From Pseudomonadota bacterium (GTDB taxonomy: Bacteria; Pseudomonadota; Alphaproteobacteria; Rhizobiales; Hyphomicrobiaceae): a stretch of DNA of 64,000 nucleotides. The stretch spans positions 31,137 to 95,136 of the forward strand of contig JAEYPL010000031.1 in the NCBI GenBank assembly GCA_023410905.1, read 5' to 3'. The notes below the pieces were generated by a model that was not told the origin of the DNA, ran no database searches, and saw only the letters and a program-made list of their open reading frames with translations. Shown in pieces: positions 8,477-29,277 of the stretch. The number at the start of each line of letters is the position of its first letter. The stretch's first letter is position 1. The position numbers and the translations under genes were made by a program.

Positions 8477-8617
8477 GACTGCGCGTGCCCCGCACGGGAT
8501 CTCGCGCGCACGCAACACTCTCGCCGGCCGTGGTGATCCTGCACTAGAAATCCAGTGTCATTCGTTAGAGTGCTCTGAAATTCTAGGCTGTGGCTGCCTC
8601 TGAGCATCGAAGCGTGC

Positions 8618-9673
8618 CTAAATTGCCCCCGCCTCGACAACATCTTCAAACATCGCATCAAGATTGGTCAGGGACATCGTCTTAGTGGGGCCGATAATGA
8701 CCAGCGCAGACCCGCTACTTGCACCATTGCCCTGCTCTGATACCCAGTTTTCCCGTTGTCCTACCCGATGAAAGATCGTGCGCGTGCCGGTTTGGTCAGA
8801 CTGACGGAACACGCCTTTAGCGCGAAGCACATCGGCCGGTATTTTGCGCAGGCTGTCCCGAAGTCGATTGGCATCGACGGGGCCCGACCAGGATCGGCTC
8901 CAGGTTGAAAGGCCGATCTCGTGGGCTGCCGTGCAAGCAATCTCAGGATCGCGCATTGATTTCACGCCAAGCACGAGATCGGGCGGCACATCCGCATTCG
9001 ATGTCTCGACACGTGGAGCCGACGTTATTGCCTCGAGGAGGCCGTGCATGTTCACTCGGCTCGCTGGAGCGACAAGATCGCACTTGTTGAGCAGCAGGAG
9101 ATCCGCTGCCTTGATCTGTTGCTCGACGGTTGCGCGAGTGAGCGCATCTGCCAGACGGCTTTCGATGCCGTCTGCGTCGACTATCGTGATGACTCCGTCG
9201 AAGCGCACGCTTGGATTGGAAAGTGCGACCAGCAGGATGCCGCGCGGGTCGGCGGCACCGCTTGCCTCAAGTACGATGCAATCGGGCATCTCATCGCGTT
9301 GGGCGATTTGAACCAGTGTGCGTGTGAGATCGCCGGCGACAGTGCAGCAAGCGCATCCGTTGGTCAGCTCTATCGTATCGGAAGACACGCCTTTGATGAG
9401 TTCTGCATCGATATTGATGGCGCCGAAATCGTTCACGATGACCGCGATCTTTCTCCCATGTGGCTGCGTAAGGAGACGATTCACCAGCGTGGTCTTCCCG
9501 GCGCCGAGAAAGCCACTGATCACCGTTAGCGGCAGAGAACCTTTCGCAGCCCGCAACGTTGGAGGAATAAACTGAGCGGCCTGCATCAGGCCAGTGAGCA
9601 TGGAAAGCGTCGAGAAATTATCTGCTACCGTCCGCGTTTGCTGCAAGGGATCATCCCCGCTCGAATCCGTCAT
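8618..9673 (-). CDS. COG0523/CobW-family G3E GTPase (putative metallochaperone), copy 1
   Basis: P-loop GFLGAGKTTLVN, CxCC motif (NGCACCTV), the NKCD-type switch LLLNKCDL and a CobW_C-like tail. ATGA overlap with the upstream amidohydrolase. Confidence 0.9.
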   Translation of the reverse strand: MTDSSGDDPLQQTRTVADNFSTLSMLTGLMQAAQFIPPTLRAAKGSLPLTVISGFLGAGKTTLVNRLLTQPHGRKIAVIVNDFGAINIDAELIKGVSSDTIELTNGCACCTVAGDLTRTLVQIAQRDEMPDCIVLEASGAADPRGILLVALSNPSVRFDGVITIVDADGIESRLADALTRATVEQQIKAADLLLLNKCDLVAPASRVNMHGLLEAITSAPRVETSNADVPPDLVLGVKSMRDPEIACTAAHEIGLSTWSRSWSGPVDANRLRDSLRKIPADVLRAKGVFRQSDQTGTRTIFHRVGQRENWVSEQGNGASSGSALVIIGPTKTMSLTNLDAMFEDVVEAGAI

Positions 9674-11334
9674 GCCTTCTGCACCTTGCCTGCGAGAACG
9701 GTGCCCCAGATGCCGATGTCCTTGATCGCCATCGGATCCACATCGTAGGGGCTGTCTTCGAGGATGGCAAAGTCGGCGAACTTGCCAGGCTCCAAGCTGC
9801 CAACCTTATTCTCGAGGCCGAGCACGTACGCAGCATCGATCGTAATTGCGCGCATCGCACGATCCACGCTGATCCGTTCGCCTGGAGCGACCACTGTCTT
9901 GCCGTCAAGTGCAACGCGATTAACAGCGATCCAGGCCGCCGTGAGTGGATGGAGCGGGACCACGACGAGAGAATAGTCCGAGTGGATCGTGAAGGTCACG
10001 CCCGCTCGCTCGAGCGAACCGAGCCGCGCGACCGCTTCAGACCGATCGGGTCCATAGCCTTCGTTTGCGTGGATCTGGCTACGATAGTGGGTGAAGTAGT
10101 TGTTGACGCTGGCAAGCCCTCCGAGCGCCTTGAGGCGACGCGCCTGTTCCGGCGTGCTGATGCAGTAGTGCTCGAGGGTGAAGCGATGGTCGAACTTTGG
10201 TCTTATCGCTTGAAGCTTAGCGAGCGCATTGAGCGACGCGTCGATGGCTTCATCACCATTTGCATGGCAATGGATCGGAATTCCGGCTTCCCAGAAAGGG
10301 AGCATCCGTTCGTGAAATTCGTCCCAGGGAACGTCGTTGCGCAGGCCATTGCTACCGTCGAGATAGCCCGGATAGTTCAGGCGCAGCGACATCGCCGGAA
10401 ATGATCCATCGGAAAAGAACTTCACGCCATGGAAGAAGAGCTTATCGGAATTACGCTTCTCCATGATTGACAGCATGAAATCGGCGCGCTTGCTCCCATG
10501 TGTGCGATGTAGCGCGTTTTCCTGCGGCACCAGCCCCATCCGTAAAGGAAACGCTGGATCGTTGACGACGGCATTATAGAGCTGCCACTCAAGCTCGAAA
10601 TCGTTTGCTCCGAAGACCAGCTCAGCGGTTGTTGTCATGCCAGCCTTGTGGGCAACAGCGCCCATGCGCCTGATGCCATCAGCGCCACCGCGTTTCGCGA
10701 TCTCCGCCCGGATTCCTCCGAGAGCAATCACCTTCGCCTCGATCTCCACAAACTGGCCGTTGAGGCGGCCGTCATCGTAACGCAGCACGCCATGAACGTT
10801 TGAGTTCTCGGGAATGTTCGCACTCTTGATCGCAGCCGAATTGAGGTAGACGAAGTGCGGTGCATACGAGATCGCCCAGATCGGCCTGTCGCCAAGCAAG
10901 GCATCGAGTTCGTCACGATGGAGATGTGAGCCCTGAATTGCAGGGTCCAACCCCCAACAGATGATAGGCTCTTGCGGATTGCGCAACGACTCATGGATCG
11001 AGCGCAGTTTCGCCTTGACCGCATCCATGTTTGGCAGGCCATTGTAATGCGTGCCATCCGGCGCCGGGGAGTCGATCGGCCCGATATAGTGCAGGGCCAT
11101 GTAGCCAGAGCTCATCAGGAAGTGTGTATGCGGGTCTATAAGTCCCGGCATGATGACCTTTGACTTGAAGGTGTCATCGATCACATGCGGATAACGCGAG
11201 AGCCAAGGCTGCATGCTCTCGATCGTGCCGGTGGAAAGCACACGACCATCTCTGACCGCCACGGCTTCCGCGAACGGGCGCCCGGCGTCCATCGTGATGA
11301 CTTTCCGCGCCGGATAGACGACGATCTCGCTCAT
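9670..11334 (-). CDS. Metal-dependent amidohydrolase (Amidohydro_3 / YtcJ-like), copy 1
   Basis: Motifs PGLIDPHTHF, HCHANGDEAID and HSDYS. The ATG at 11334 is preceded by GGAGGAG; the ORF track TTG start at 11352 is less likely. Confidence 0.9.
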   Translation of the reverse strand: MSEIVVYPARKVITMDAGRPFAEAVAVRDGRVLSTGTIESMQPWLSRYPHVIDDTFKSKVIMPGLIDPHTHFLMSSGYMALHYIGPIDSPAPDGTHYNGLPNMDAVKAKLRSIHESLRNPQEPIICWGLDPAIQGSHLHRDELDALLGDRPIWAISYAPHFVYLNSAAIKSANIPENSNVHGVLRYDDGRLNGQFVEIEAKVIALGGIRAEIAKRGGADGIRRMGAVAHKAGMTTTAELVFGANDFELEWQLYNAVVNDPAFPLRMGLVPQENALHRTHGSKRADFMLSIMEKRNSDKLFFHGVKFFSDGSFPAMSLRLNYPGYLDGSNGLRNDVPWDEFHERMLPFWEAGIPIHCHANGDEAIDASLNALAKLQAIRPKFDHRFTLEHYCISTPEQARRLKALGGLASVNNYFTHYRSQIHANEGYGPDRSEAVARLGSLERAGVTFTIHSDYSLVVVPLHPLTAAWIAVNRVALDGKTVVAPGERISVDRAMRAITIDAAYVLGLENKVGSLEPGKFADFAILEDSPYDVDPMAIKDIGIWGTVLAGKVQKA

Positions 11335-11609
11335 GATGGGCTCCTCCAGCAAGCCGGTCCAAGCGTTGAGACTAAGCTTGGCTCAGCGGCGTGCGTTATT
11401 ATCCACACGACACATGTTTTGTAGTTTTCCGCATTTGTCGTCAGGAGGGGCCGCCTCAAGCAAGCCTGCTGTTTCGGTGCTGCTTCACGCTCTGGCAACG
11501 CCCCACGGCGGCGGAAAACTGATGAGTGCTTGCAGGTGCGCGACAGTCACGACGTAAGATCGCGACGCGGGCTGTGCTCCCTATTGCAAGCCCCGCACCC
11601 TGCGTGAAA

Positions 11610-11626
11610 TGTCACCGATCGTGACA
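11610..11626. promoter_or_regulatory. Inverted repeat TGTCAC-N5-GTGACA, a candidate operator
   Basis: Perfect 6-bp arms about 30 bp upstream of the CocE/NonD gene start, in the divergent 320-bp intergenic region. Confidence 0.25.
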
Positions 11627-11654
11627 AGCAAGCCCGAGGCAGTGGGGGAAGCAT

Positions 11655-13484
11655 ATGCCAGATAATGACGATCGCGGCCAAGCTTGGCGCGTGCCGCCGA
11701 GCCGCTATCTTGCGACACGCCCCACCACCTACAGCATCCCGAAGCCCATTTCCTGTTATGTGACGATGCCGGACGGCTGCCGTCTTGCCGCGGATATCTA
11801 TATCCCGCAGGGCGCGGACGCAGATGTGCGACAATGGCCCACCATTCTCATCTGCACGCCCTACTATCGACGCTTCCAGGTGAAAGCCGGCGCCAGTACG
11901 GAGCCCTGCCCGAACACCTTTCGCTATCGCGATATGTTTGTGCCGCGCGGTTATGCGATGGTCGTGGTCGATATCCGCGGGAGTGGCGCCAGTTTTGGTA
12001 CGCGCGACAGTTTCCGTTCACCTCGCGAGCGTGAGGATTGTCGCGCAATTGCGGATTGGATCGTCGCTCAGTCGTGGTCCGATGGCCGGATCGGCGCGAC
12101 GGGGATTTCCTATCTGGGCGCCGCGAGTGATTTTCTTGCGAGCACCGGCCATCCGGCCGTCAAAGCGATCGCGCCGCTCTTCGCCGTCTGGGACACCTAT
12201 CCCGACAACTACTATCCAGGTGGCGTGCTGCTCAAGGAGTTGGCGAGGGTCTACGACGGTATGATGGTCGCTCTTGACCACGACCGGCGCGACTTTCTCA
12301 AGAACTACGGCTATTACGCAGATCCTAATCTTGAAGGTCCGCATCCCGTCGATGAAGATGAAGACGGCAGCTTGTGTCGGGCTGCAGTGCGCGAACACGT
12401 TGCAAATTTCCGAATGCCGGACTTCATCACCGAGTTCAAGTTCAGGGACGATGCACTCCCTTATGACAAGAGCTTCACGTCAGCCAAGTTCGGACCGTAC
12501 AATTACGCTAGCGGCATTCGCGAGGACGTCGCTGTTTATACGGTCTCGGGTTGGACAGACGGCGCGGGCTACGCGAATGGTACGATCAGCCGCTTTTTGA
12601 CGCTTCCGAATCCTAACAAGTATCTTCTGCTTGGACCATGGGATCACGGAGCACGCGTCAATACTTCCCCCTGGCGCGACGGCGTCTCTCCCCAATTCAC
12701 TGTTCTTGCCGAGATCCTGCGCTTTTTCGATGAGCATCTCGCCGGAATGCACACCGGCCTCAAAAGCGAGTCGCGGGTCCACTACTTCACCTTTCATGAG
12801 GAAGCGTGGCGCGAAAGCGCAAACTGGCCACCGACCCGTGAAGCTAAACGCCTCTATCTCACCGCCGGACACGAACTGACCGAGGCGCAAGGTTTGGCGG
12901 GCTCAGACAGCTATCAGGTCGACTTCGGTTCGGGGACAGGCAACGAGACGCGATATGAACGCATCGCCGGTCTCGATATCACGCGCTACTACACGGATTG
13001 GCAGGGACGCGGAGATCGAATGTTGTCCTATGTCTCGATGCCCCTAGATCAATCTCTCGAGATTTCGGGCCATGCCTTGGCATCGCTGTGGGTTTCGTCA
13101 AGTGAGCCGGATGCGGCGCTGTTCGTCTACCTGACGGAGATCGAGGAGGACGGCACGGCACGTTACATAACGGAAGGACTACTGCGCGCCTTGCATCGCA
13201 AGGAGAGCCCGTGTCCGCCGAACTACAAGACCAGTTGGCCTTATCGCACCTTCTCGCGGGCGGATGCCGCGCCTATGCCGATCGGCAAGCCCGAGGTGCT
13301 CCGCTTTCCGCTGCTGCCAGTTTCCTGGACCCTCCAGAAAGGAAGCCGCCTGCGGGTTTCCATTGCTGGGGCAGATGCCGATCACTGCGGTCAGATCCCC
13401 CATGGCCGACCGCCCCTGCTGACGGTGCACTGGGGCGGCGACTTAGGCTCTTACATAGAGCTGCCAGCAAAGGCTCTCGGCTAA
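11655..13484 (+). CDS. CocE/NonD-family (S15, X-Pro dipeptidyl-peptidase-like) alpha/beta hydrolase
   Basis: N-terminal signature ADIYIPQG..PTILICTPYYRR..VVVDIRGSGASFG, the nucleophile elbow GISYLGA and a long C-terminal jelly-roll region. Confidence 0.9.
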   Translation: MPDNDDRGQAWRVPPSRYLATRPTTYSIPKPISCYVTMPDGCRLAADIYIPQGADADVRQWPTILICTPYYRRFQVKAGASTEPCPNTFRYRDMFVPRGYAMVVVDIRGSGASFGTRDSFRSPREREDCRAIADWIVAQSWSDGRIGATGISYLGAASDFLASTGHPAVKAIAPLFAVWDTYPDNYYPGGVLLKELARVYDGMMVALDHDRRDFLKNYGYYADPNLEGPHPVDEDEDGSLCRAAVREHVANFRMPDFITEFKFRDDALPYDKSFTSAKFGPYNYASGIREDVAVYTVSGWTDGAGYANGTISRFLTLPNPNKYLLLGPWDHGARVNTSPWRDGVSPQFTVLAEILRFFDEHLAGMHTGLKSESRVHYFTFHEEAWRESANWPPTREAKRLYLTAGHELTEAQGLAGSDSYQVDFGSGTGNETRYERIAGLDITRYYTDWQGRGDRMLSYVSMPLDQSLEISGHALASLWVSSSEPDAALFVYLTEIEEDGTARYITEGLLRALHRKESPCPPNYKTSWPYRTFSRADAAPMPIGKPEVLRFPLLPVSWTLQKGSRLRVSIAGADADHCGQIPHGRPPLLTVHWGGDLGSYIELPAKALG

Positions 13485-14524
13485 AGAGGCTCGTCGAAGA
13501 TGCGGCGCGCGGTGTCAGTTGATGGGCTGATCCGGCGCGTCGCTTTTGGCGTCTGTGTGAGAAGACGCTTGCGTTGCTCCGACGGATTGATTCCGTAAGC
13601 GAGCTTGAATGTCTTGCTGAGGTGCGCGCCGTCGGCGAAGCCCGTGTCGGCCGCGATTGCGGCAAGGGACAGATCGGAATTCAGCATCCATCGCGCGTGC
13701 TTGAGCCGCAGCCGGAGATAGGCTGTGTGCGGCGCGCAGCCGACCTTCTCCTTGAACAGCCGTTCGAGTTGGCGGGCGCTCGTATGGACCTGCGCTGCGA
13801 CCTTTGCCACCGGCATTGGCCGCGCCAAATTCTGCTCCATGATCAGTAAAGCGCGCGAAACCCGGTCGTTGTCACCGGAAAGGGCCATCGGCGGTGCCGG
13901 CTGAGCCGAAGAGCCTGGTCGAGCGCGATCGATCTGCAAAATGTGAAGAGCCTTTTGCGCGCTCGCCGGCCCCAGATGACGCTCAACAAGAGAAGCCGCC
14001 AGAGAGGAAACGCCGGCGCCTCCTGAGCACGTTATGCGATCTCCGTCGACCACATAAAGTCGGTCGGCAATCGGCACCTGATCGCCAAACTCCTCCACGA
14101 AGTCGCGATAATGATACCAGCTGATGCAGCATTTGCGTCCTTCGAGCAGTCCGAGGCGGCACAGCACAAAACTGCCTGTACACAATCCAACGAGCTTGGT
14201 GCTCGAGCACGCAGCTTTAAGAAGATATTCCTGGGATTTGGGGTGCAACTGGGGGCCAGTATGAAGGAGCCCTCCGACGGTAACGATGTAGTCAAGGTCG
14301 CTGGGATCAACGAATCCCGAAGTAGGGCGGATATAGGCGCCGCAGCTTGCGCGGATCGCATCTTCCGAATGCGACATGATTTGCCACTGGCATCGGATCG
14401 GGCGGCTCTTATCGCCTTCGTCTGCTGCGAGACGAAGAATGTCGACAAAGTTGGCAAACGCCGTCAGCGTAAAATTATTGGCTAGGATGAAGCCAACTCG
14501 CAGCGGTGTCGGTGCCCTTCGCAC
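13481..14524 (-). CDS. GlxA-family transcriptional regulator (DJ-1/PfpI-like domain + AraC HTH)
   Basis: N-terminal GATase1-like/DJ-1 domain (RVGFILANNFTLTAFANFVDILR.. LCTGSFVL). C-terminal AraC-type HTH (ARQLERLFKEKVGCAPHTAYLRLRLKHARWML.. IAADTGFADGAHLSKTFKLAYGINPSE). Its 3' end overlaps the convergent CocE/NonD gene by 4 nt. Confidence 0.9.
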   Translation of the reverse strand: MRRAPTPLRVGFILANNFTLTAFANFVDILRLAADEGDKSRPIRCQWQIMSHSEDAIRASCGAYIRPTSGFVDPSDLDYIVTVGGLLHTGPQLHPKSQEYLLKAACSSTKLVGLCTGSFVLCRLGLLEGRKCCISWYHYRDFVEEFGDQVPIADRLYVVDGDRITCSGGAGVSSLAASLVERHLGPASAQKALHILQIDRARPGSSAQPAPPMALSGDNDRVSRALLIMEQNLARPMPVAKVAAQVHTSARQLERLFKEKVGCAPHTAYLRLRLKHARWMLNSDLSLAAIAADTGFADGAHLSKTFKLAYGINPSEQRKRLLTQTPKATRRISPSTDTARRIFDEPL

Positions 14525-14653
14525 GTGCCGATATACTCCTCTTTAGAAAGGAAACATGCGTAGCTGTATTTGAATATGCCCCGCCAGCGTGGAATTTGGC
14601 AAGGCTATGCCCGGGCCGTAGTGCGAGCCGAGCTGCCCGATTGCACGCCAGGC

Positions 14654-16492
14654 TCACCGGCCGAACGCGTAACCCTGCATGTAGCGGGCATTCGCTGCGG
14701 CCCTGAGCACGCGGCCCCGACGCGACGCGGCGCTCAGGCGGCCAAGAGACCACTCGGCCACGGTCTCGACTTTGTGGCCTCGTGCCTCTAGGCGCCTCAC
14801 GGCCTCCGGGGAAAAACGGCTCTCGATGGTCAACGAGGCGGGCTTTGCCTGACGCGGAAAGAACGAGCTCGGCATGTGATCGTTGTGAAACATCGGAAGG
14901 TCGATGCTCTGCTGAAGGTTATCGACGTGATGCACGTGACGCAGGAAGAAGGCGAGGCTCCACTGGTCCTGCTGGTCACCACCAGGGGTGCCGAAGCTCA
15001 GATAGGGTTCACCATCACGTTCGATCATGGCCACCGATAGCGTGGTCCGCGGCCGTTTGCCGGGCGCGAGGGAAGCGGGCAGGCCAGGCCTTAACCAGAA
15101 CATCTGCGCGCGCGTCCCGAGAGTGAAACCCAACCCCGGTATCACGGGTGAGCTCTGCAGCCAGCCTCCGCTTGGTGTCGCCGAGACCATATTGCCGAAG
15201 CGATCGACAATGTCGAAATGCACAGTATCGCCGCGCGAGGCTCCGCGCGGACCGACGGTCGGCTCGCCAGCGCCGAGCGAGGTGCCTTCGCTGCCCGTGC
15301 CGTCCGCAACCGCGTAGGGAACGTCATGCTCATAGCCCTCGATATGACCAGGGCGGAACTCGGCGGACGCGTGGCGGCCTATAAGGCGACGTCGCGCATT
15401 CGAATAATCAGCGCTCAACAGCGTATCGACCGGTACATCTACATAATTCGGATCACCGTAGAATTTCTCGCGATCCGCAAATGCCAGTTTCGAACTCTCG
15501 GTGACGAGGTGGACGAACTCGTCGCCGACCGGATCCAATGCGCCGAGATCAAAGCCCTTGAGCAAAGCCAACTGCTGAAGGAATACGGGGCCCTGCGTCC
15601 ACACGCCGGGCTTGTTGACGCGGTATCCATGGTAATCAATGGATAGTGGTTCCTCGTAAGTCGGCTCCCACGTCGCTAGATCTTGCCCAGTGATGAGGCC
15701 CCGATGGCGCTGCCCCGACGTATCCATGACCTCGCTTTCGCGGGAGAAGCGATCGATCGCGTCCGCGATGAAGCCTTGATAGAAGGCTTGCTTGGCGGCA
15801 TCGATCTGACGCTCGCGTGATCCTCCCGCTGCTTCTGCGGCGGCCAGTATCCGCTCATACGTCGCAGCCAGATCAGGGTTACTGAAGAGTGTTCCCGCCG
15901 TCGGCACGTCCGGCCGCAGGTAGACATCACGCGAGGTCGGCCATTCATTGCGGAACAGCGGCTCGACGATCTTGATTGCCGCCGCAATGCGCGGGAGCAG
16001 AATGTATCCATTGCGGGCATAGCCAATCGCCGGTTCTAGGACGTCGCGAAGGCCCAGCGTGCCGTAGTCCCGAAGGAGTACCATCCACGCGCCGAACGAG
16101 CCTGGCACGCACGCCGGCAGAAGTCCGCTGCCCGGAATGATATCGAGCCCAAGAGCGTCGAATGCCTTGATCGTCGCCGCTTGCGGAGCCACGCCCTGGC
16201 CGCAGAGAACGCGCGTCTTGCGCGACTTGGCATCGTTGAAGATGATGGGAACTTCACCGCCGAGCCCATTCAGGTGCGGCTCGACCACCTGAAGAGCGAA
16301 GCCGGTGGCGACTGCCGCATCGAACGCGTTCCCACCGATCTCCAGCACTCGCATCCCGGCAGCCGTACCAAGCCAGTGCGTCGACGCGACAACGCCATAT
16401 GTTCCGACAATCTCTGGGCGGGTCAGAAACGGCGGCTCGCCGGCATCAGGCCCGTAAGTGAGACGGAAATTGCCCAGTGAGAGCTGGCTCAT
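14654..16492 (-). CDS. Gamma-glutamyltransferase-family Ntn hydrolase, no signal peptide (copy 1)
   Basis: GGT-family N-terminus (VVASTHWLGTAAGMRVLEIGGNAFDAAVA) and an autoprocessing/nucleophile Thr context (GDTVHFDIVDRFGNMVSATPSGG). I chose the ATG at 16492 (MSQLSLGN..); the ORF track start at 16669 would overlap the divergent gene. Confidence 0.85.
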   Translation of the reverse strand: MSQLSLGNFRLTYGPDAGEPPFLTRPEIVGTYGVVASTHWLGTAAGMRVLEIGGNAFDAAVATGFALQVVEPHLNGLGGEVPIIFNDAKSRKTRVLCGQGVAPQAATIKAFDALGLDIIPGSGLLPACVPGSFGAWMVLLRDYGTLGLRDVLEPAIGYARNGYILLPRIAAAIKIVEPLFRNEWPTSRDVYLRPDVPTAGTLFSNPDLAATYERILAAAEAAGGSRERQIDAAKQAFYQGFIADAIDRFSRESEVMDTSGQRHRGLITGQDLATWEPTYEEPLSIDYHGYRVNKPGVWTQGPVFLQQLALLKGFDLGALDPVGDEFVHLVTESSKLAFADREKFYGDPNYVDVPVDTLLSADYSNARRRLIGRHASAEFRPGHIEGYEHDVPYAVADGTGSEGTSLGAGEPTVGPRGASRGDTVHFDIVDRFGNMVSATPSGGWLQSSPVIPGLGFTLGTRAQMFWLRPGLPASLAPGKRPRTTLSVAMIERDGEPYLSFGTPGGDQQDQWSLAFFLRHVHHVDNLQQSIDLPMFHNDHMPSSFFPRQAKPASLTIESRFSPEAVRRLEARGHKVETVAEWSLGRLSAASRRGRVLRAAANARYMQGYAFGR

Positions 16493-16569
16493 GTTCGAAA
16501 CACTCCACGGCGCACAGTCTGACGCCGCAGACCATTCGCGCTTCTTCGGCTGCAGTTGGTCGCAGCAAT

Positions 16570-16593
16570 CTGGTCGGTTATATAACGATCCAG
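16570..16593. promoter_or_regulatory. Imperfect 24-bp palindrome CTGGtcgGTTATATAACgatCCAG, a candidate operator
   Basis: A perfect 10-bp core palindrome GTTATATAAC flanked by CTGG/CCAG. It sits centrally in the 194-bp divergent region between the two GGT-family genes. Confidence 0.25.
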
Positions 16594-16686
16594 ACGCCTG
16601 TCTTGTCGATTTGCGACACTGCATTGCAGGGTCCGCGTCCAATGCTACGGTGCGCGCCTCACAGCTCAAAGTTCGGCGAGGTTCTC

Positions 16687-18339: not shown

Positions 18340-18681
18340 ACCAAGCCAAAAGGTATGCATTTGCCCAAAAACAGGGCGACTATCTGCTAGAAAGACATCA
18401 AGTCTTCGCAAGTCCAATGCTGCGAGCTTGGACAAGCAGATCATGGAATCCTGAGGATGGTCCTAACGCTACATCTGCGATGTCGCGGTCCTACAAGGGT
18501 TTGCCTGGATACCATCTTAGCTTAGCAATAGGCTTTGGGGCAAAGACTCATCTTCATTCCCTTCTCGAAGTCAGTTATCGCACAGGCGATGCTATCGCTG
18601 ATGCGCCGACGTGCACCTGCCTTCCCGACATGCGCCGCGGCGCTGCTCGGCGCTTTGGCGTAGTTCGAAGGAGAGCGACGA

Positions 18682-19749
18682 ATGACTAATCGTGACAATT
18701 CCGAACTTGGTAGGCTGACGCGCCGGCAGATGCTCGCTGGTTCCGCCACCTTCGCAGCGGCCGGCGTTCTGGGCGGGCCAGCCTTTGCGCAAGCCAAAGG
18801 CGAAATCATCGTTGCTAATTGGGGTGGTGATTGGGGCGATCGCACGGCGCGGTTCTTCGAGACGCCTATCGTCGAGAAGGCGGGTTACAAAGTCGTGCGG
18901 GATCTGGGTGCCATCGACCAGCGTCGTACGAAACTCCTGGCGGCGCGCCGCCTTCCGCGCGCGGCATTCGATGTCTCTCATCTCGACGACACGGATGCCT
19001 ACTTCATGAACACGCAGGGCGTGCTCGAGGAACTGTCAGATAAAGACATCCCCAATCTCGCTGACGTCCACGAGCAGATCCGGGCGCCGTACTTCATTCC
19101 GTGGCAGTTCAGCGGATGGGTCATCGGCTACAATCCCGACAAGGTGAAGGAGCCGCCGCAGAAGTTCGCAGATCTGTGGAATCCGAAATATGCCGGCATG
19201 ATCGGCTTCACCGACAATCACTGGTATCACCACATGGAGATGGCCGCGCTCGTCAACGGCGGCGATCTGACCAACATCAAGAACATAAAATCCGCTCTCC
19301 TCGACTTGAAGAAGGCGACTAATCCCCGACTTTATCCGCAGCACTTGCAGCAGGCGCAGGCCTTCAAGAATGACGAGATTTCGATCGGGCCGAACTACAA
19401 GTCGCGCATCATCCAGTTCGCGTCGGAGGGCATCAAACTGACACCCGTATTCCCCACCGAAGGCACTGTCAGCATCACGTTCGGAGCCGTCATCCCGAAG
19501 AAGGCACCAAACAAGGAAGGTGCGCTGTTTTACGGGAATGCCCTCATTGATCCGATTGGCATGGCCGGTCTCGCTCAGCAGTCGTTCTATGCGCCAGCGA
19601 ACAAGAAAGCTGTCTTGCCGCCGGATGCGTCGAAGCTGATCGAGTTCACGGAAGACGAGCGCAAGAAGCTGCGTGCACGCGAGAACGGCTTCTGGGCAGA
19701 GAATCGCGCGTCGCTGCTCGAGTGGTGGAACAAGGATTTCAAAGGGTGA
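18682..19749 (+). CDS. PotD/PotF-like periplasmic substrate-binding protein (ABC transporter) with a Tat-type signal peptide
   Basis: Twin-arginine leader LTRRQMLAGSATFAAAGVLGGPAFAQA. Polyamine/opine-type SBP body. RBS GAAGGAGAG upstream. Confidence 0.9.
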   Translation: MTNRDNSELGRLTRRQMLAGSATFAAAGVLGGPAFAQAKGEIIVANWGGDWGDRTARFFETPIVEKAGYKVVRDLGAIDQRRTKLLAARRLPRAAFDVSHLDDTDAYFMNTQGVLEELSDKDIPNLADVHEQIRAPYFIPWQFSGWVIGYNPDKVKEPPQKFADLWNPKYAGMIGFTDNHWYHHMEMAALVNGGDLTNIKNIKSALLDLKKATNPRLYPQHLQQAQAFKNDEISIGPNYKSRIIQFASEGIKLTPVFPTEGTVSITFGAVIPKKAPNKEGALFYGNALIDPIGMAGLAQQSFYAPANKKAVLPPDASKLIEFTEDERKKLRARENGFWAENRASLLEWWNKDFKG

Positions 19750-19768
19750 CATTCCGTACGGCAAACAC

Positions 19769-20662
19769 ATGCAGGCGGTAGCACCAAGCGAAGTCTCAGG
19801 GCCTAAGAAGCACAGGGCCCGAGGCGTGTCAGCGCCTTGGGTCCTGTCGGCACCTGCGATGATCTTCGTCTCGTTGTTCTTGCTCGTCCCGCTGGTCATC
19901 ATGCTGCGATTGAGCGTGAGCAAATATGATCCAGCGGAGATGTATCTTCAGGTCTTCACGGCCGAAAACTACGTGAAGTTTTTCACGGACAGCTTCTACC
20001 GCCACGTTTTATGGACGACGTTGTTGGTGTCGGGCGTCACAACGTTTTTGTGTCTCATCGGCGGGCTTCCGGTCGCATACTTCATATCCCGCTCGCCATC
20101 TGATCTGCTGAAACGCGTACTCATCATAGCAGTCGTTCTGCCGCTTCTAATGGGAAGCGTCGTGCGTACGGCCGGCTGGATCATCGTCCTCGACAACAGC
20201 GGCGTGCTCAAGTTCACGCTCAGCTATCTCGGTCTGCTGGTCGATACGCCACTGCTCTTCACGACCGGCGCTGTGATTGCGGGCCTGACATCGGTTCTGT
20301 TGCCCTTCATGATCATTACGCTTCACAGCGTGATGGAAGCCATCGATCCGGCCCTTGAGGAAGCCTCGTCCAGCCTCGGCGCCACGCCGCTCACGACATT
20401 TCGGCGGGTTGTGCTGCCGCTTCTGATTCCTGGCATTCTCGCTGGCTGTGTCCTCTGCTTCATACTCTCGATGAACGCCTATGCGACGCCGGTACTCCTT
20501 GGCGGTCCGCAATTCCACATGATGGCGCCCAAGGTCTACGAGCAAATTGCCAAGAGCATGAACTGGCCGTTCGGCGCCGCACTCGCCTTCGTGCTGATCT
20601 CGGTGACGGCCCTGCTCACGGTGGCGTCGAGCCTCGCCTTCGGACGTAAGACGCGCGCATGA
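19769..20662 (+). CDS. PotB-like ABC transporter permease
   Basis: Multi-TM protein with the EAA loop EEASSSLGATPLTTFRRVVLP. ATG at 19769; the ORF track GTG at 19673 would overlap the SBP gene. Confidence 0.85.
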   Translation: MQAVAPSEVSGPKKHRARGVSAPWVLSAPAMIFVSLFLLVPLVIMLRLSVSKYDPAEMYLQVFTAENYVKFFTDSFYRHVLWTTLLVSGVTTFLCLIGGLPVAYFISRSPSDLLKRVLIIAVVLPLLMGSVVRTAGWIIVLDNSGVLKFTLSYLGLLVDTPLLFTTGAVIAGLTSVLLPFMIITLHSVMEAIDPALEEASSSLGATPLTTFRRVVLPLLIPGILAGCVLCFILSMNAYATPVLLGGPQFHMMAPKVYEQIAKSMNWPFGAALAFVLISVTALLTVASSLAFGRKTRA

Positions 20663-21489
20663 CATCCATCATGAAAAGCGGGGCACTCAGTTCACTGCAG
20701 CGCGCGGCCTATCTCGGTGCCGTCTGGGGCATCCTGTTCTTCATCCTCGCGCCCCTCGGCATCACGATTTGGGTGGCGTTCTTCAGCAATAAGATCATGT
20801 CGTTCCCGCCGGAAGGCTACACGCTCGAGTGGTTTATTCGGGCGTGGGAATTGGCGGCTTTCCGCAACGGCTTCCTGCTCAGCGCGCAACTGGCGCTCAC
20901 GGCTGCTGCTCTGGGCTTGCTCCTCGGTGTGCCGGCGGCGATCGCGATCGCGCGCTATCGTTTTCCGGGACGTGAGATCATCAATACGGCGTTGATGTCG
21001 CCGATCATGGTTCCGGCAATCGTGGCCGGCAGCGCGATCTATCTGTTCTACATCGAGTTTCAGATCGCGACGGAAGTGCAAGTAGCGGGTACGCTGCCGG
21101 GCCTCGTCATTTCGCACACGCTCATCGCCGTGCCGTGGGTGCTGCGCCTAGTCACGGCATCGCTGGTCGGCATGGATCCTGCCATCGAAGAAGCGTCGAT
21201 GAGCCTTGGTGCCAGCCGCTTCACCACGTTCAGGCGCATCACTCTGCCAGTCATCCGGCCTGGCATCATAGCCGGTGGCCTGTTCGCATTCATCGTCTCC
21301 TTCGGTGATCTGGAGAAGTCGCTGCTGCTAGTCGGCCCGGGGCGCTCTACGCTGCCGATAGCCATGCTGAACTATCTTGAGTACCGGACCGATCCCACGA
21401 TCATGTCGGTCGCCACCATCCAGATCCTGATCATCGGCGCCGCGCTCGTCATCTCGGATCGCTTTGTCAGACTGAGCCGTACCTTCTAG
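20659..21489 (+). CDS. PotC-like ABC transporter permease
   Basis: EAA loop EEASMSLGASRFTTFRRITLP. 4-nt overlap with the upstream permease. Confidence 0.9.
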   Translation: MTSIMKSGALSSLQRAAYLGAVWGILFFILAPLGITIWVAFFSNKIMSFPPEGYTLEWFIRAWELAAFRNGFLLSAQLALTAAALGLLLGVPAAIAIARYRFPGREIINTALMSPIMVPAIVAGSAIYLFYIEFQIATEVQVAGTLPGLVISHTLIAVPWVLRLVTASLVGMDPAIEEASMSLGASRFTTFRRITLPVIRPGIIAGGLFAFIVSFGDLEKSLLLVGPGRSTLPIAMLNYLEYRTDPTIMSVATIQILIIGAALVISDRFVRLSRTF

Positions 21490-21506
21490 GAGCCACTGAG
21501 AATTCC

Positions 21507-22595
21507 ATGTCGACCATTTCGCTCCAGAATGTCGTCAAGTTTTACGGTTCGGCACTTGCGGTCGAGGATTTCTCGCTCGAGATCGCGCAGGGGGAGTTCC
21601 TGGCGCTGCTGGGGCCGAGCGGCTGCGGCAAAACCACCACGCTGCGCATGATCGCCGGCTTCATCGATGCGAGTAGCGGCCGAATTCTTTTCGACGATCG
21701 CGATGTCACGCATCTTCCACCCAATCGCCGCAATACGGGTATGGTGTTCCAAGGCTTTGCGCTCTTTCCCCACATGACGGTGTTCGAGAACGTCGCCTAT
21801 GGCCTTGAAATGCGGCGCGTTGGCAAGGAGGAGATCAAGGACCGCGTTGCGAAGATCCTGGATCGCGTGCAGCTCGGCCACCTTGCTGGTCGGCTACCGA
21901 AGCAGCTCTCCGGCGGTCAGCAGCAGCGGGTCGCGTTGGCTCGCGCGCTAGTGATCAACCCGGATGTCCTGCTTCTCGATGAGCCGCTGTCTGCACTCGA
22001 TGCCAAGCTACGGCACGAGGTTCGTCTCCAGATTCGACAGTTGCAGCAGTCGCTAGGTCTGACGACGATTTTTGTTACGCACGATCAGGAAGAAGCACTC
22101 AGTCTCGCCGATCGCCTGGTGGTGATGAGCAATGGCCGCGTCGAGCAGATCGGGTCGCCGTCCGATCTTTATGAGCGTCCGGCTACCCCGTTCGTCGCGG
22201 ACTTCATCGGCAAATCGAATTTCTTCAAGGGCAGTATTGAGGGGCAGGTGTTTACGTCCGAATTCGGCGCCAAGCTGCGCGTTTCGAATCCGGATGCAGC
22301 TGGCGGCGAACGTGCACTAGTTGCAATTCGGCCTGAAAAGATCCGGTTGCGGGAGGCGAATGGTGCTGCGGTATCGGCGACCGAGAATGAGCTTCCAGGT
22401 GTCATTGAATTCGTAAGCTATCTGGGACCGACGACCGAGTATGCAATCCGTCTCGACGGCGGGCCGATCGTGCTCGTCCGTCAGCAGAACGAGACGGCAG
22501 CAGCGCGCGCGAGCTTGACTGTTGGGCGCCCCATCGCCCTCGGTGTCGCTCCGGAAAACTGCATGGTCTTTGCCGAGCCGCGCCCCCATACCTAA
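21507..22595 (+). CDS. PotA-like ABC transporter ATP-binding protein
   Basis: Walker A GPSGCGKTT, signature LSGGQQQRVALARAL, Walker B LLLDEPLSALD and a C-terminal TOBE-like domain. Confidence 0.9.
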   Translation: MSTISLQNVVKFYGSALAVEDFSLEIAQGEFLALLGPSGCGKTTTLRMIAGFIDASSGRILFDDRDVTHLPPNRRNTGMVFQGFALFPHMTVFENVAYGLEMRRVGKEEIKDRVAKILDRVQLGHLAGRLPKQLSGGQQQRVALARALVINPDVLLLDEPLSALDAKLRHEVRLQIRQLQQSLGLTTIFVTHDQEEALSLADRLVVMSNGRVEQIGSPSDLYERPATPFVADFIGKSNFFKGSIEGQVFTSEFGAKLRVSNPDAAGGERALVAIRPEKIRLREANGAAVSATENELPGVIEFVSYLGPTTEYAIRLDGGPIVLVRQQNETAAARASLTVGRPIALGVAPENCMVFAEPRPHT

Positions 22596-22635
22596 AGTCG
22601 CACCTGCGGGTCCGATGTTTGCGAGGAATGAATTG

Positions 22636-24297
22636 ATGACCAGCATCACCGTCTTTGTCGCTCGCAGGATCATCACCATGGACCCCGGCCGGCCGGAAGG
22701 AACGGCGGTCGCCGTGATGGACGGCCGCATATTATCCGTCGGCAGTCTCACAAGCCTTCAGCCTTGGCTCAGCCGCTACCCTCACACGATCGATGACACA
22801 TTTGCCGACAAAGTCATCATGCCGGGTTTTATCGATCCTCACACACACCTCGGTATCTCCGGCGCCTATCTGAGCGTGAACTACGTCGGCCCGATCGAGT
22901 CGCCCGGGCCGAACGGAATGAATGCCGCGCTTCTCGATCGGGACGCCGTAGTGCGACGCATTCGCGAACTGATTGCGCTCGATCCAGATCCGGAGCGGCC
23001 CCTGATCACATGGGGACTCGATCCCGCCGTCCAGGGTGGTCACCTCCATCGTGACGAGCTGGACGGCATCTCCTCGGAGAAGCCCGTCTGGGTTCTCTCG
23101 TACGCGCCGCATTACGTCTATGCGAACAGCAAGATGATCGAGCGGCTGGGCGTGACGGATGCGACCAACGTCCACGGCATTGGCAAGTACCCTGACGGTC
23201 GCCTCAATGGTCAGTTTGTCGAGATGGAGGCGCTGCACGTCGCGTTCGGGCCTGTACGCGAGGAGTTCACGAGGCCGGACAACAATATGGCGTCGCTCCG
23301 CATGATGGGGCAGACGGCGAAGCGGGCAGGCATCACCACGACAGCAGATCTCGCCTTCGGCTTCACCGAATTCGAGAGCGACTGGGCTTACCATGAGAAG
23401 GTCGTCAACAGTGCAGACTTCCCGATCCGCATGGCGCTGGTGCCGATGGAGTCGGCTATTCACCGCATTCATGGAAAGAACGCGCCCGAATTCGTTAAGA
23501 GCCTCTCGCGCCGTTCGACCGAGAAGCTGTTCTTCCACGGCATCAAGTTCCTTGGCGACGGCTCCTATCCCGCCATGTCGCTGCGCGTGAAGTTCCCGGG
23601 ATATCTAGACGGAGGCAACGGTCTGCGGGGTGATATCCCGTGGGAGGAATACAAGGATCGGATGCTGCCCTATTGGAAGGCTGGCATCCAAATTCATGCG
23701 CACGCCAACGGCGACGAGACCGTCGACGCCACGCTCGATGCGCTGGCACAGCTGCAGCAGGAGCACCCACGCTTCGACCACCGCTTCACGATCGAGCACT
23801 ACTGCATCAGCACACCTGATCAGGCGCGCCGCTTGAAGGCGCTTGGCGGCATGGCGAGCGTCAACATCTATTTCGTGCACTATCGTGGCCAGCTTCACAG
23901 CGAGCAAGGCTTCGGCCCCGACCGCTCGGAAGCGACGGCACGCCTCGGAAGCCTGGAGCGCGAAGGTGTAATCTTCGCCCTACACTCCGACTTCTCGCTC
24001 GTCGTTGTGCCTCTTCATCCTCTAACCGCGGCTTGGGTTGCGATCAATCGTGTGGCGGCGGACGGCAAGACCGTACTTGCGCCAGGCGAGCGCATCGGGA
24101 TCGATCGCGCCATGCGTGCCATTACCATCGACGCTGCTCACCTCCTGCGACTGGATAGCAAACTCGGCAGCATCGAGGTTGGCAAGTACGCGGACTTCAC
24201 GATCCTTGACGACGACCCTTATGCGGTCGCCCCGATAGCGCTTAGGGATATTCCGATCTGGGGTACCGTGCTCGGTGGCGTGAAGCAGCCGGCTTAG
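22636..24297 (+). CDS. Metal-dependent amidohydrolase (Amidohydro_3 / YtcJ-like), copy 2
   Basis: Collinear with copy 1 (PGFIDPHTHL, HAHANGDETVD, HSDFSLVVVPLHPLTAAW). The ATG at 22636 is preceded by GAGGAA and aligns with the copy-1 start. Confidence 0.9.
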   Translation: MTSITVFVARRIITMDPGRPEGTAVAVMDGRILSVGSLTSLQPWLSRYPHTIDDTFADKVIMPGFIDPHTHLGISGAYLSVNYVGPIESPGPNGMNAALLDRDAVVRRIRELIALDPDPERPLITWGLDPAVQGGHLHRDELDGISSEKPVWVLSYAPHYVYANSKMIERLGVTDATNVHGIGKYPDGRLNGQFVEMEALHVAFGPVREEFTRPDNNMASLRMMGQTAKRAGITTTADLAFGFTEFESDWAYHEKVVNSADFPIRMALVPMESAIHRIHGKNAPEFVKSLSRRSTEKLFFHGIKFLGDGSYPAMSLRVKFPGYLDGGNGLRGDIPWEEYKDRMLPYWKAGIQIHAHANGDETVDATLDALAQLQQEHPRFDHRFTIEHYCISTPDQARRLKALGGMASVNIYFVHYRGQLHSEQGFGPDRSEATARLGSLEREGVIFALHSDFSLVVVPLHPLTAAWVAINRVAADGKTVLAPGERIGIDRAMRAITIDAAHLLRLDSKLGSIEVGKYADFTILDDDPYAVAPIALRDIPIWGTVLGGVKQPA

Positions 24298-24313
24298 CTC
24301 GGAGTGCAGTCGC

Positions 24314-25378
24314 GTGTCTCAGCCAACCGATAGCAAACGCCCCGCCATCGACAGCACCCGGGCCGATGCGGCGGCGACATGGCAGATGCTGCTCGGCATT
24401 GCGCAGGCTGCGCGCCTGATGCCGGAGCGTCGTGCCGCAGCACCCGGATCGGTAGAGTTCTCGCTCATCGCGGGCTTCCTAGGCGCCGGCAAGACGACAC
24501 TGGTCAATCACCTCCTGGGCGGTGCGCATGGGCGCCGCCTCGCCGTCATCGTCAATGATTTTGGCGCCATCAACATCGACACATCCCTGATCAGTCGGCG
24601 CGATCGCGACACGATAAGCCTGACGAATGGCTGTGCGTGCTGCAGCATGGCCCGTGGCTTGACAGAAACGCTGCTTACGCTCACTGAGCAAGCAGAGCCC
24701 CCGGAGGCGATCATACTGGAGGCCAGCGGCATCGCTGAGCCGCAGCCCATTCTTCATGTCGCCCTTACCAATCCCGCTTTGGCGCTCAACGGTGTCGTCA
24801 CGCTCGTGGATACAGAGACCGCTCTGGAGCACGCCAGTGATCCAAACTTCGGCGCCATCGTGACGCGCCAAGTGAGTGGTGCCGATCTCGTGGTTCTGAA
24901 CAAATCGGATCTTGCAACGCCAGCAATGTCGGACGACGTACAGGCCTGGGCGCGGCGTATCGCGCCAAATGCCGCCATCGTGAGGTCCACAGAGGCGAAT
25001 GTAGCCACTGAGGTCGTGCTCGGTTATCAGGCGTCGCACGCCATGCCCGCACAAGATGGTCGTGATGTGAGCGGAGGCACCAGCAAACCGTTCCGGAGCT
25101 GGAGCTTTGCGTTCGACGAAGCGCTGAGCGCCGAGCGCGTGCGCAAGCTTTCGGAAACCTTGCCGCACGGCATTCTGCGCGCCAAAGGCACGCTCTATCT
25201 CGCCGACGCTTCCGAGCATCGGCATGTCTATCAGCTCGTTGGCCGCCGGTGGCGGCTGTCGCGCGACATAATATGGGGTGAAGCGCGCCCACGATCAGAG
25301 ATCGTCTTCATTGCAGCTGACAGCTTGATCGAAGAAGCTCAGATCAGGCGCTGCCTGGACGAGTGCGTCGTGACCTGA
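24314..25378 (+). CDS. COG0523/CobW-family G3E GTPase (putative metallochaperone), copy 2
   Basis: P-loop GFLGAGKTTLVN, CxCC motif (NGCACCSM) and VVLNKSDL. GTG start 16 nt after the amidohydrolase stop. Confidence 0.9.
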   Translation: MSQPTDSKRPAIDSTRADAAATWQMLLGIAQAARLMPERRAAAPGSVEFSLIAGFLGAGKTTLVNHLLGGAHGRRLAVIVNDFGAINIDTSLISRRDRDTISLTNGCACCSMARGLTETLLTLTEQAEPPEAIILEASGIAEPQPILHVALTNPALALNGVVTLVDTETALEHASDPNFGAIVTRQVSGADLVVLNKSDLATPAMSDDVQAWARRIAPNAAIVRSTEANVATEVVLGYQASHAMPAQDGRDVSGGTSKPFRSWSFAFDEALSAERVRKLSETLPHGILRAKGTLYLADASEHRHVYQLVGRRWRLSRDIIWGEARPRSEIVFIAADSLIEEAQIRRCLDECVVT

Positions 25379-25384
25379 GCACGC

Positions 25385-25963
25385 TTAGCTGTCGCTTACG
25401 TCGCGCGATGCGCCCTCCAGGAAGCCGTGCACGTAGGGCGCGAAAGATCTCCAGCACACCACGCGGTAGCCTCGATCCGCGCTCGACCGAACGAGCACGA
25501 TTTCTGCTTTCCCGAGCACGGTGCGCGTGGCCGATCCTGCAGGAAAAGCAGCGTCATCAAGGTCGAGCGCCACGCCGGCATTGAGCACTATCGGTGCCTT
25601 CACACCCGCCACGACCATCGATACATTGCGATGGCTGACGTCGACGAGCGAGTGGTGTTTCCCTTCGAGAGCTGCGCTGATCAGTTGTGCCAGCGCATCA
25701 CTATCGCCCGCCGGCGCCATCAGCAGCCATTCGTCCGGGCCCAGGCGGGCCGCCGTCTTTTCTTCGGTCGCGATTGCCGTATTGATGCGGCCCGTAAGAT
25801 CGAAGCCAGCGACGTGCCGAATGCTCTCGGCGATCGCAGGTGCAATACGCAGCGCGTAGGCCGTGCTTGCTTCAATGTTCGAGATCGTCACGCCAGATGC
25901 CGCGCCTGACGCAACAACATCCTGTGCTCGCAGGCGGGTGCTGTTCGAGTGCCGCTCAGACAT
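25385..25963 (-). CDS. soxG: Sarcosine oxidase gamma subunit
   Basis: It is the last gene of the soxBDAG order and has a SoxG-like sequence (..YALRIAPAIAESIRHVAGFDLTGRINTA..LGPDEWLLMAP..). The ATG at 25963 overlaps the soxA stop by 8 nt. Confidence 0.85.
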   Translation of the reverse strand: MSERHSNSTRLRAQDVVASGAASGVTISNIEASTAYALRIAPAIAESIRHVAGFDLTGRINTAIATEEKTAARLGPDEWLLMAPAGDSDALAQLISAALEGKHHSLVDVSHRNVSMVVAGVKAPIVLNAGVALDLDDAAFPAGSATRTVLGKAEIVLVRSSADRGYRVVCWRSFAPYVHGFLEGASRDVSDS

Positions 25964-29269: not shown

Positions 29270-29277
29270 GAAAAGCC

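Follow-up and report, generated by a model that had tools for sequence, protein, structure and literature searches.

Why would a bacterium keep two paralogous gene pairs, close together and facing outward, each of which couples an amidohydrolase to a GTPase of the COG0523 family? We addressed this question in a 64,000-nucleotide stretch of DNA from a Hyphomicrobiaceae bacterium (Alphaproteobacteria; assembly GCA_023410905.1, contig JAEYPL010000031.1, positions 31,137 to 95,136), which we call the window. The answer that we favour, and hold to be fairly probable, is that each pair would be an operon-encoded, client-specific maturation system, in which the COG0523 GTPase serves the metal centre of the hydrolase encoded beside it. 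The amidohydrolase and GTPase of module 1 are abbreviated as AH1 and G1, and those of module 2 as AH2 and G2 (lengths in amino acids, aa):

8618..9673, minus strand: G1, COG0523 GTPase, 351 aa (Pfam cobW, E 7e-47; CobW_C, E 1e-8)
9670..11334, minus strand: AH1, Amidohydro_3 (YtcJ-like) hydrolase, 554 aa, ATG at 11334 (PF07969, E 5e-52)
22636..24297, plus strand: AH2, Amidohydro_3 (YtcJ-like) hydrolase, 553 aa (PF07969, E 2e-58)
24314..25378, plus strand: G2, COG0523 GTPase, 354 aa, GTG start (cobW, E 6e-43; CobW_C, E 2e-15)

The four open reading frames (ORFs) lie exactly where the original prediction, made from the sequence alone, had placed them, and the ORF map bears out the spacing that it described: the G1 start codon overlaps the AH1 stop as ATGA, and G2 starts 16 nt past the AH2 stop. 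Each module is probably a co-transcribed two-gene unit, with probable translational coupling in module 1, and both products appear to be cytoplasmic. A 354-aa protein identical to G2 (P0121) is present in public assemblies; thus, gene callers picked the same GTG start. AH1 and AH2 align end to end by BLASTP with 61% identity (555 columns, 3 gaps), close to the roughly 60% estimated by eye, and G1 and G2 are 43% identical across 298 aa (E 8e-69). The proposed family assignments (Amidohydro_3; cobW plus CobW_C) all score above the Pfam gathering thresholds, and the proposed motifs DPHTH, HxHANGDE, HSDxSLVVVPLHPLTAAW, GFLGAGKTT and NGCACC are present.

We examined how far the gene order is conserved by using an alignment of the hydrolase family to search GTDB, one genome for each species, and by locating COG0523 genes with tblastn in the loci returned. 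The orthologue group comprised 23 loci, two of them partial or multi-copy, whose hydrolase shares 50% identity or more across the matched part, and the comparison group comprised 48 loci with only distant Amidohydro relatives. A COG0523 gene lay directly downstream on the same strand at 16 of the 23 orthologue loci, and 1-2.5 kb downstream at four others, all from sponge-associated Acidimicrobiia. As the original prediction implied, most orthologues do carry a COG0523 neighbour: 20/23, versus 1/48 among the distant relatives, where the single match was on the opposite strand (Fisher's exact p = 1.6e-13). The pairing is therefore far beyond chance. It occurs in Alpha-, Beta- and Gammaproteobacteria, Myxococcota and Acidimicrobiia, and plasmid searches added pairs in Mesorhizobium and in a member of the Bacteroidota (Persicobacter). 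Adjacency still holds at 31-40% hydrolase identity, in Burkholderia multivorans, B. arboris, Variovorax, Caballeronia and Cupriavidus as well as in Paracoccus aminovorans, Sulfitobacter mediterraneus and Polyangium. The reverse test gave the same result in 3/3 cases, as GTPase homologues (41-43% identity) in Pseudomonas, Polyangium and Ruegeria directly follow an Amidohydro_3 gene of 551-559 aa. At about 35% the context diverges: GTPases 35-37% identical, in S. fredii and Rhizobium indicum, have no hydrolase of the studied family nearby. In most annotated examples elsewhere, the spacing between the two genes is -4 to +20 nt.

The two genes also diversify together. Neighbour-joining trees of 27 hydrolases and of their 27 partner GTPases resolve the same major clades, and the two distance matrices correlate with a Mantel r of 0.71, a value reached in 0 of 2000 permutations. 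The pair thus evolves as a unit. In these trees module 1 clusters with Afipia, a Hyphomicrobiales metagenome-assembled genome (MAG) and Bordetella-labelled MAGs, and module 2 with Brucella grignonensis. Since the modules fall in separate old clades, they did not arise by a recent inverted duplication; the earlier picture of inverted paralogous modules bracketing an island stands as to layout and paralogy but not in that sense. They are instead old paralogues, or one was acquired as a unit. That one genome keeps two hydrolases with two GTPases only 43% identical argues for a pair-specific function rather than a generic metal donor.

What kind of client would the hydrolase be? Both proteins match PF07969 over profile positions 7-470 of 472 with 178.5 bits (AH1) and 199.5 bits (AH2), against a cutoff of 29.7, and give a weaker match to Amidohydro_1. 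Six putative metal ligands (H69, H71, K304, H356, H388, D452) show no variation among 40 close homologues and 5 distant paired ones. K304, H356 and H388 align to matching residues of the YtcJ-like structure 3ICJ; H69 and H71 align to it only in a weak first segment, and D452 was placed by a local S/T-D motif because that stretch aligns poorly to 3ICJ. The ligands claimed from inspection of the sequence are thus retained across the homologues, and the site is predicted to be a binuclear metal centre bridged by a carbamylated lysine. In AH2 the ligands are encoded as follows:

22840..22848, plus strand: codons spanning H69 and H71
23545..23547, plus strand: K304
23701..23703, plus strand: H356
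23797..23799, plus strand: H388
23989..23991, plus strand: D452

The AlphaFold2 model of AH2 (pLDDT 84.3, pTM 0.87) has the predicted fold of 3ICJ and 3IGH, a TIM barrel with a beta-sandwich, and these two structures were its best Foldseek matches (E about 7e-29, TM 0.66-0.77, about 20% identity). Lower-ranking matches were triazine hydrolases, deaminases and peptidases of the superfamily.

One segment of AH2 differs from the rest of the model. The loop 309-332 (23560-23631), just past Lys304, is nearly invariant in the 40 homologues, with D308, G309, S310, P312, M314, S315, P321, Y323, G326, N328, G329 and R331 as the near-invariant residues in and around it, and is the least confidently modelled part (pLDDT below 50). 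Such a loop might act as a movable lid or provide a surface for interaction. A clade-specific insertion that might serve as a docking site was not found in the hydrolases; instead, 67 clade-specific positions are scattered along the sequence.

The GTPases carry the features expected of a metal-handling partner. By sequence, G1 and G2 belong to the COG0523 subfamily of G3E P-loop GTPases, with 159.9 and 146.9 bits, respectively, to cobW (cutoff 20.7) and 35.2 and 57.2 bits to CobW_C (cutoff 22). The columns of Walker A (GFLGAGKTT), Walker B ExxG (LEASG) and NKCD (G1) or NKSD (G2) are invariant in 48 homologues (36-87% identity), the set to which the conservation figures for the GTPases refer. 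So are N105, G106, C107, C109 and C110 of the NGCACC motif, which contains the CxCC site, and R289 and K291 of the RxKG motif (LRAKGVF in G1, LRAKGTL in G2), described as an arginine finger in the C-terminal domain of COG0523 proteins (PMC13001444). No His-rich stretch was found in G1 or G2; this absence, the P-loop and the CxCC site had all been noted correctly. The nearest solved structure to G2 is YjiA (E 2e-32), and the AlphaFold2 model of G2 has a pLDDT of 80. The CxCC motifs map to:

9344..9355, minus strand: CxCC motif of G1 (C107-A-C-C110), located by sequence, with all three cysteines (C107, C109, C110) in invariant columns
24632..24643, plus strand: CxCC motif of G2 (C107-A-C-C110), located by sequence, invariant columns, in a loop of low confidence in the metal-free model

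Several named COG0523 types were compared with G1 and G2 and set aside, neither protein being close to any named equivalog in NCBIfam. For CobW proper, TIGR02475 gave 145.6/137.2 bits (G1/G2) against a cutoff of 332.1, the His stretch is lacking and cobN was not seen among the scanned neighbours. The Zur-regulated zinc chaperone ZigA (subfamily 1 of Haas et al.) gave 115.7/114.6 bits with NF038288 against a cutoff of 600, and two generic patterns found no Zur box. The YjiA model PRK11537 gave 102.8/130.6 bits against a cutoff of 361, and the neighbourhood is unlike cstA2/yjiX.

Outside the G-domain core, the GTPases carry an N-terminal extension of about 45 residues with the motif (E/D)(A/T)WQML-x-G-(I/L)-x-(Q/E)-A-A-x-(M/L)-(M/I)-P:

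9563..9616, minus strand: N-terminal helix motif of G1 (residues 20-37, FSTLSMLTGLMQAAQFIP), conserved in hydrolase-linked GTPases of several phyla
24368..24424, plus strand: N-terminal helix motif of G2 (residues 19-37, AAATWQMLLGIAQAARLMP), conserved across the homologues

The motif shared by the two proteins proved real, and its conservation is stronger than two sequences could reveal: A32 is invariant and G28 is kept in 45/48, a level equal to that of parts of the G-domain, while L26 is kept in 43/48 and P37 in 34/48. It recurs in hydrolase-linked GTPases of Proteobacteria, Acidimicrobiia and Myxococcota. In G2 the segment is modelled, with moderate confidence, as a helix (residues 12-35, pLDDT 52-59). 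By analogy with the N-terminal motif of ZNG1, the helix, a clade-specific elaboration, might act as a client-docking element.

Taken together, conserved adjacency, congruent trees, invariant ligands and the profile matches support the reading of the original prediction, a dedicated enzyme/metallochaperone pair, and suggest the following scheme. The first gene would encode a YtcJ-like amidohydrolase, located in the cytoplasm, in which a carbamylated lysine bridges the two metals of a binuclear site, and the second a COG0523 (G3E) GTPase acting as its private maturation factor. In its GTP state the GTPase would bind metal at CxCC and dock on its own apo-amidohydrolase, specificity probably residing in the N-terminal helix of this clade and in the C-terminal domain, which is variable; GTP hydrolysis, aided by the RxKG arginine finger, would then drive release of the metal into the hydrolase active site. 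We also entertain, tentatively, a more far-reaching version: that this clade is a second, urease-independent branch of the amidohydrolases whose carbamyl-lysine centre does not assemble by itself in vivo, so that the GTPase docks through the helix, loads a poorly competing metal (Fe, Co, Ni or Mn rather than Zn) and perhaps promotes carbamylation.

Several points weigh against a dedicated maturation partner. No COG0523 gene lies within 6 kb at three of the 23 orthologue loci (Streptomyces, Saccharopolyspora and one Poriferisodalis), and among other contigs with close hydrolase homologues the pair is present in 5/6, a Binataceae contig being the exception; adjacency is thus not obligatory, or the partner is encoded elsewhere in these genomes. 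Neither the GTPases that accompany distant (31-40%) hydrolases nor non-paired relatives have the N-terminal helix, which therefore cannot be a general requirement for partnership. The search for Zur boxes described below rested on generic consensus patterns, and a divergent box is possible. Many enzymes of the amidohydrolase superfamily self-assemble their metal sites in vitro. Finally, activity of a PF07969 bile-salt hydrolase has been described with no mention of a chaperone (preprint).

Synteny and co-diversification would fit equally well if the GTPase were an accessory factor that delivers no metal, acting in GTP-gated assembly or activation of the hydrolase (carbamylation, oligomerisation or lid opening) or as a regulatory partner. 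In urease activation, a GTPase step is linked to CO2-dependent lysine carbamylation, which lends this idea some plausibility, and the invariant loop after K304 is modelled with the low confidence that a mobile element might show. Nonetheless, we regard such a role as rather unlikely: the homologues show no variation in CxCC, the defining site of high-affinity metal binding by COG0523 proteins, and every characterised COG0523 protein binds and handles metals (PMC9164220, PMC11672702).

We give less credence still to the notion that the GTPase has a general chaperone role in zinc homeostasis, or has another enzyme of the island as its client (the zinc-containing SoxD, a gamma-glutamyltransferase or the CocE hydrolase, for example), and is merely operon-linked to the amidohydrolase. 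Many COG0523 proteins do have a role in zinc homeostasis, and sarcosine oxidase genes adjoin clades of both modules. AH1 is 70-74% identical to hydrolases at soxBDAG clusters of the Bordetella-labelled MAGs (order: regulator on the opposite strand, then soxB-soxD-soxA-soxG-AH-G-sdaA) and of Afipia and the Hyphomicrobiales MAG (regulator, PotABCD-like importer and CocE, then, divergently, AH-G-soxBDAG-sdaA, with glyA in some). The contexts of AH2-type pairs are diverse, however: an ABC importer, an M20 peptidase and a GbdR-like regulator; IclR, amidase, MFS and RidA genes; LysR, CoA-transferase, HpcH lyase, gamma-glutamyltransferase and peptide ABC system genes; or P450, luciferase-like monooxygenase, SDR and sterol-reductase-like genes. 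The adjacency persists where sox, gamma-glutamyltransferase, CocE and ABC transporter genes are all absent. Since the hydrolase is the sole constant neighbour of the GTPase across these contexts, sarcosine oxidase, gamma-glutamyltransferase and CocE are ruled out as the shared client. A general zinc chaperone is further disfavoured by the retention of two divergent GTPases, one per hydrolase, by NCBIfam scores far under the ZigA, YjiA and CobW cutoffs, and by the failure of two generic patterns to find a Zur-like box.

That a recent segmental duplication produced the inverted pair, or that the two modules form the arms of a composite mobile element by which the island was moved, with the pairing mere hitch-hiking, is scarcely credible: the modules do face outward around a catabolic island, and relatives of them are found on plasmids and within integrase-flanked islands, but protein identity is only 61% (hydrolases) and 43% (GTPases), the copies belong to different clades with orthologues in other genera, the GC content of 8-26 kb equals that of the flanks, and no transposase or integrase family was seen among the genes scanned at 8.6-32.2 kb, where no dedicated DNA repeat search was run.

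The surrounding genes bear on the physiology of the proposed maturation system. Those that separate or adjoin the modules are listed here, together with the spacer next to AH1:

11335..11654: 320-bp spacer, a divergent promoter region with AH1-G1 on one side and the CocE/NonD gene on the other
11655..13484, plus strand: CocE/NonD-family alpha/beta hydrolase (TIGR00976, E 3e-101, above cutoff; Peptidase_S15 and PepX_C)
13481..14524, minus strand: GbdR-like DJ-1/PfpI plus AraC regulator of the GATR type (HTH_18, HTH_AraC, DJ-1_PfpI)
14654..16492, minus strand: gamma-glutamyltransferase homologue a (G_glu_transpept, E 3e-112; a 612-aa gene call in an identical contig, L072)
16687..18339, plus strand: gamma-glutamyltransferase homologue b (G_glu_transpept, E 2e-124; TIGR00066 above cutoff)
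18682..22595, plus strand: PotD/PotB/PotC/PotA-like ABC importer, comprising binding protein, two permeases and ATPase (SBP_bac_8, BPD_transp_1 twice, ABC_tran plus TOBE_2)
25385..32187: soxG-soxA-soxD-soxB on the minus strand, then L-serine dehydratase sdaA on the plus strand (SoxG, GCV_T/SO_alpha_A3, SoxD, DAO, SDH_alpha/beta)

AH1-G1 is transcribed divergently from the CocE/NonD gene, a layout found also in Afipia and in a Hyphomicrobiales MAG. AH2-G2 lies directly downstream of the importer genes on the same strand; a PotABCD-like transporter also precedes the pair in Brucella grignonensis and is present within the Afipia cluster. The sox operon abuts G2 on the opposite strand with sdaA beyond, and this gene set would lead from sarcosine through glycine and serine to pyruvate. 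The GC content across 8-26 kb is uniform and matches the flanks, and the same gene arrangement occurs in a 106-kb metagenome contig. Several other assemblies carry orthologues at least 90% identical to AH1 and AH2 on shared contigs, so the two-module layout is not peculiar to the window. The two gamma-glutamyltransferase genes (14654-18339), divergently transcribed between regulator and importer, have no counterpart in the Afipia cluster, which is otherwise similar; this organism may thus have an additional branch for gamma-glutamyl compounds.

As to regulation, the top NCBIfam match of the regulator at 13481..14524 is GbdR (E 2e-56, under the cutoff), and its homologues flank such modules in other genomes. 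A search of the 64 kb for two Zur-type palindromes with at most 2-3 mismatches, a check that the original prediction had suggested, returned no match, these being generic consensus patterns from which alphaproteobacterial boxes may differ. Given the lack of a Zur palindrome and the presence of a GbdR-like activator, the modules resemble substrate-induced operons that bring their own maturation factor, as in the case of Nha3, rather than zinc-starvation back-up systems; in the proposed scheme they would be induced by substrate through the GbdR-like regulator. Two 11-mers, TGGCAAGGCTA and GATACCATCTT (with reverse complement), are common to island promoters (14597-14607 and 18508-18518) and the soxB|sdaA spacer (30532-30800), the only two found between the island promoters. 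They could be operators of the GbdR-like regulator.

The modules would thus serve the catabolism of small nitrogen compounds, with AH2 fed by the PotD-like importer. AH1-type enzymes would most likely cleave an amide, ureido or guanidino C-N bond to give a product that feeds sarcosine oxidase, and an economical guess at their substrate is a compound that yields sarcosine on hydrolysis. No NCBIfam equivalog fits the hydrolases (the PRK08204, TRZ/ATZ, guanine deaminase and HutI models give 40-51 bits against cutoffs of 298-703), and PDB sequence and fold searches returned uncharacterised structures as the closest matches. The neighbourhoods of AH2-type pairs are too varied to name a substrate.

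Some of the loci collected are arranged in unusual ways. In the sponge-associated Acidimicrobiia (L012 7659-9529; also L009, L015 and L021), genes for an SDR and an ERG4/ERG24-like reductase stand between hydrolase and GTPase, with P450 and luciferase-like monooxygenase genes upstream, a context very unlike the sarcosine clusters. A Rhodospirillaceae MAG (L022 4193-8860) has a tandem array of hydrolase fragment, GTPase, hydrolase (39% identical) and hydrolase (51%), and its GTPase is without the N-terminal extension. In a Pseudomonas assembly (L092 3458-9125), genes for a creatinase/prolidase-like M24 protein and a DUF885-like protein precede the pair within an integrase-flanked island. This is a hint, suggestive only, that substrates may be of the creatine type and that the module can move horizontally. 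In Sulfitobacter alexandrii (L090 4538-6939), a different, 500-aa amidohydrolase overlaps a short CobW-family GTPase by 4 nt beside an M81 (MlrC-like) peptidase; pairing of amidohydrolases with COG0523 proteins may therefore extend beyond the YtcJ-like clade studied here.

Elsewhere in the window, six ORFs of 150-230 aa on both strands lie between two-component genes and G1 (4490-8603), without a Pfam match. At 52000-64000 the GC content climbs from about 0.60 to 0.64-0.68; this part includes genes for a Kup K+ transporter and a BatA/DUF4159-DUF58 (Bat-like) set, and may be of different origin.

Although COG0523 proteins occur across the living world, the clients of the bacterial ones are few, essentially the chelatase of CobW and nitrile hydratase, and most sequence clusters are uncharacterised (PMC11672702, PMC9164220); no complex with a client has been solved (PMC11672702, PMC9164220, PMC13001444). 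Our literature search found no link between COG0523 and an amidohydrolase client, a YtcJ-like enzyme or a sarcosine operon, although it did not cover the sequence network of Edmonds et al. (2021), which may list such a cluster. If the more far-reaching version of our proposal holds, this system of two substrate-induced genes, found in at least five phyla, would offer the simplest tractable case for studying a bacterial COG0523 protein in complex with its client, and AH1-type enzymes would be an unrecognised hydrolytic entry into sarcosine catabolism. One client per COG0523 chaperone is a strongly supported prediction. The adjacency of the genes and the controls that nature supplies, namely two paralogous pairs within a single genome and relatives that have or lack the N-terminal helix, make it possible to test directly how specific a chaperone is, which metal it chooses and how GTP is coupled. 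On the same proposal, a large and uncharacterised part of PF07969 might lack activity or carry the wrong metal when produced without a partner, which matters for enzyme discovery and for the annotation of nitrogen-compound catabolism, including routes into sarcosine.

How does the system compare with those already described? Two COG0523 subgroups of Haas et al. (2009) have neighbours that recall the present locus, both of them uncharacterised: subgroup 4, which co-localises with 'metal-dependent hydrolases'/AtzB, and subgroup 7, which co-localises with an amidase, PotABCD and a cyclic imide hydrolase. In the parts of that paper available to us, on subgroups 2-10, 12 and 13, neither a YtcJ-like partner nor sox genes are mentioned. 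Going by the same parts, subgroup 4 would be expected with CoxLSM, UbiD/X, UraA, AtzB and small metal-dependent hydrolases, from which the context in the window differs. A subgroup-4-type locus of Sinorhizobium medicae has a CoxLSM-type molybdenum hydroxylase followed by a GTPase 30% identical to G2, and its neighbouring hydrolases are amidohydrolases of about 310 aa. With this locus different, and with no amidohydrolase of the studied family near the R. indicum and S. fredii GTPases, we did not place G1 and G2 in subgroup 4 or 7 as these are described there.

On the enzyme side, 3ICJ, 3IGH and the PF07969 metallo-bile-salt hydrolase have the same fold and the same six-residue metal site as AH1 and AH2, but are only about 20% identical to them, and 3ICJ and 3IGH are of no known function. 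Characterised PF07969 members act on N-acyl conjugates, whose amide bonds they cleave by means of two Zn and a carboxylated lysine (preprint). In the bile-salt hydrolase preprint, mixed-metal incorporation is frequent upon heterologous expression, and no partner GTPase or chaperone is mentioned.

The UreG/urease pair resembles the modules in that a G3E GTPase matures an enzyme of the amidohydrolase superfamily with a binuclear site bridged by a carbamylated lysine. To our knowledge, urease is the only established chaperone-dependent member of that superfamily. Unlike G1 and G2, which have CobW_C and CxCC, UreG lacks CobW_C and works as a dimer with UreD, UreF and UreE. No UreD, UreE or UreF genes were found in the window, and the match of the hydrolases to urease alpha is marginal (E about 1e-4). 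We take the likeness to be one of function only.

In the papers of 2022 on the eukaryotic ZNG1, the chaperone reportedly recognises its client through a short, conserved peptide at the N-terminus. The motif there is CPELVPI, as opposed to xWQMLxGIxQAA here, and the client METAP1 has a pita-bread fold rather than a TIM barrel. Nor is ZNG1 encoded in an operon, and it responds to limiting zinc. It nevertheless shares with the present GTPases a defined client carrying a binuclear site (PMC11672702), and the ZNG1/METAP1 pair stands with Nha3/Fe-nitrile hydratase, CobW and UreG/urease among the established COG0523/G3E precedents (PMC9164220, PMC11672702).

Nha3 (the epsilon activator; subfamily 2 of Haas et al.) is a COG0523 GTPase encoded beside a single catabolic metalloenzyme client and is not Zur-regulated; in Nha3 CxCC is essential with no requirement for a His-rich tract (PMC2770081, PMC9164220), and G1 and G2 likewise have CxCC and no such tract. 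Nitrile hydratase genes were not found in the window or at any related locus examined, and the clients differ, being the Cys-ligated Fe(III) alpha subunit of nitrile hydratase for Nha3 and a TIM-barrel amidohydrolase with a predicted His/Asp/carbamyl-Lys binuclear site here. We therefore regard Nha3 and ZNG1 as analogies for how such a pair may work, rather than as families to which G1 and G2 belong.

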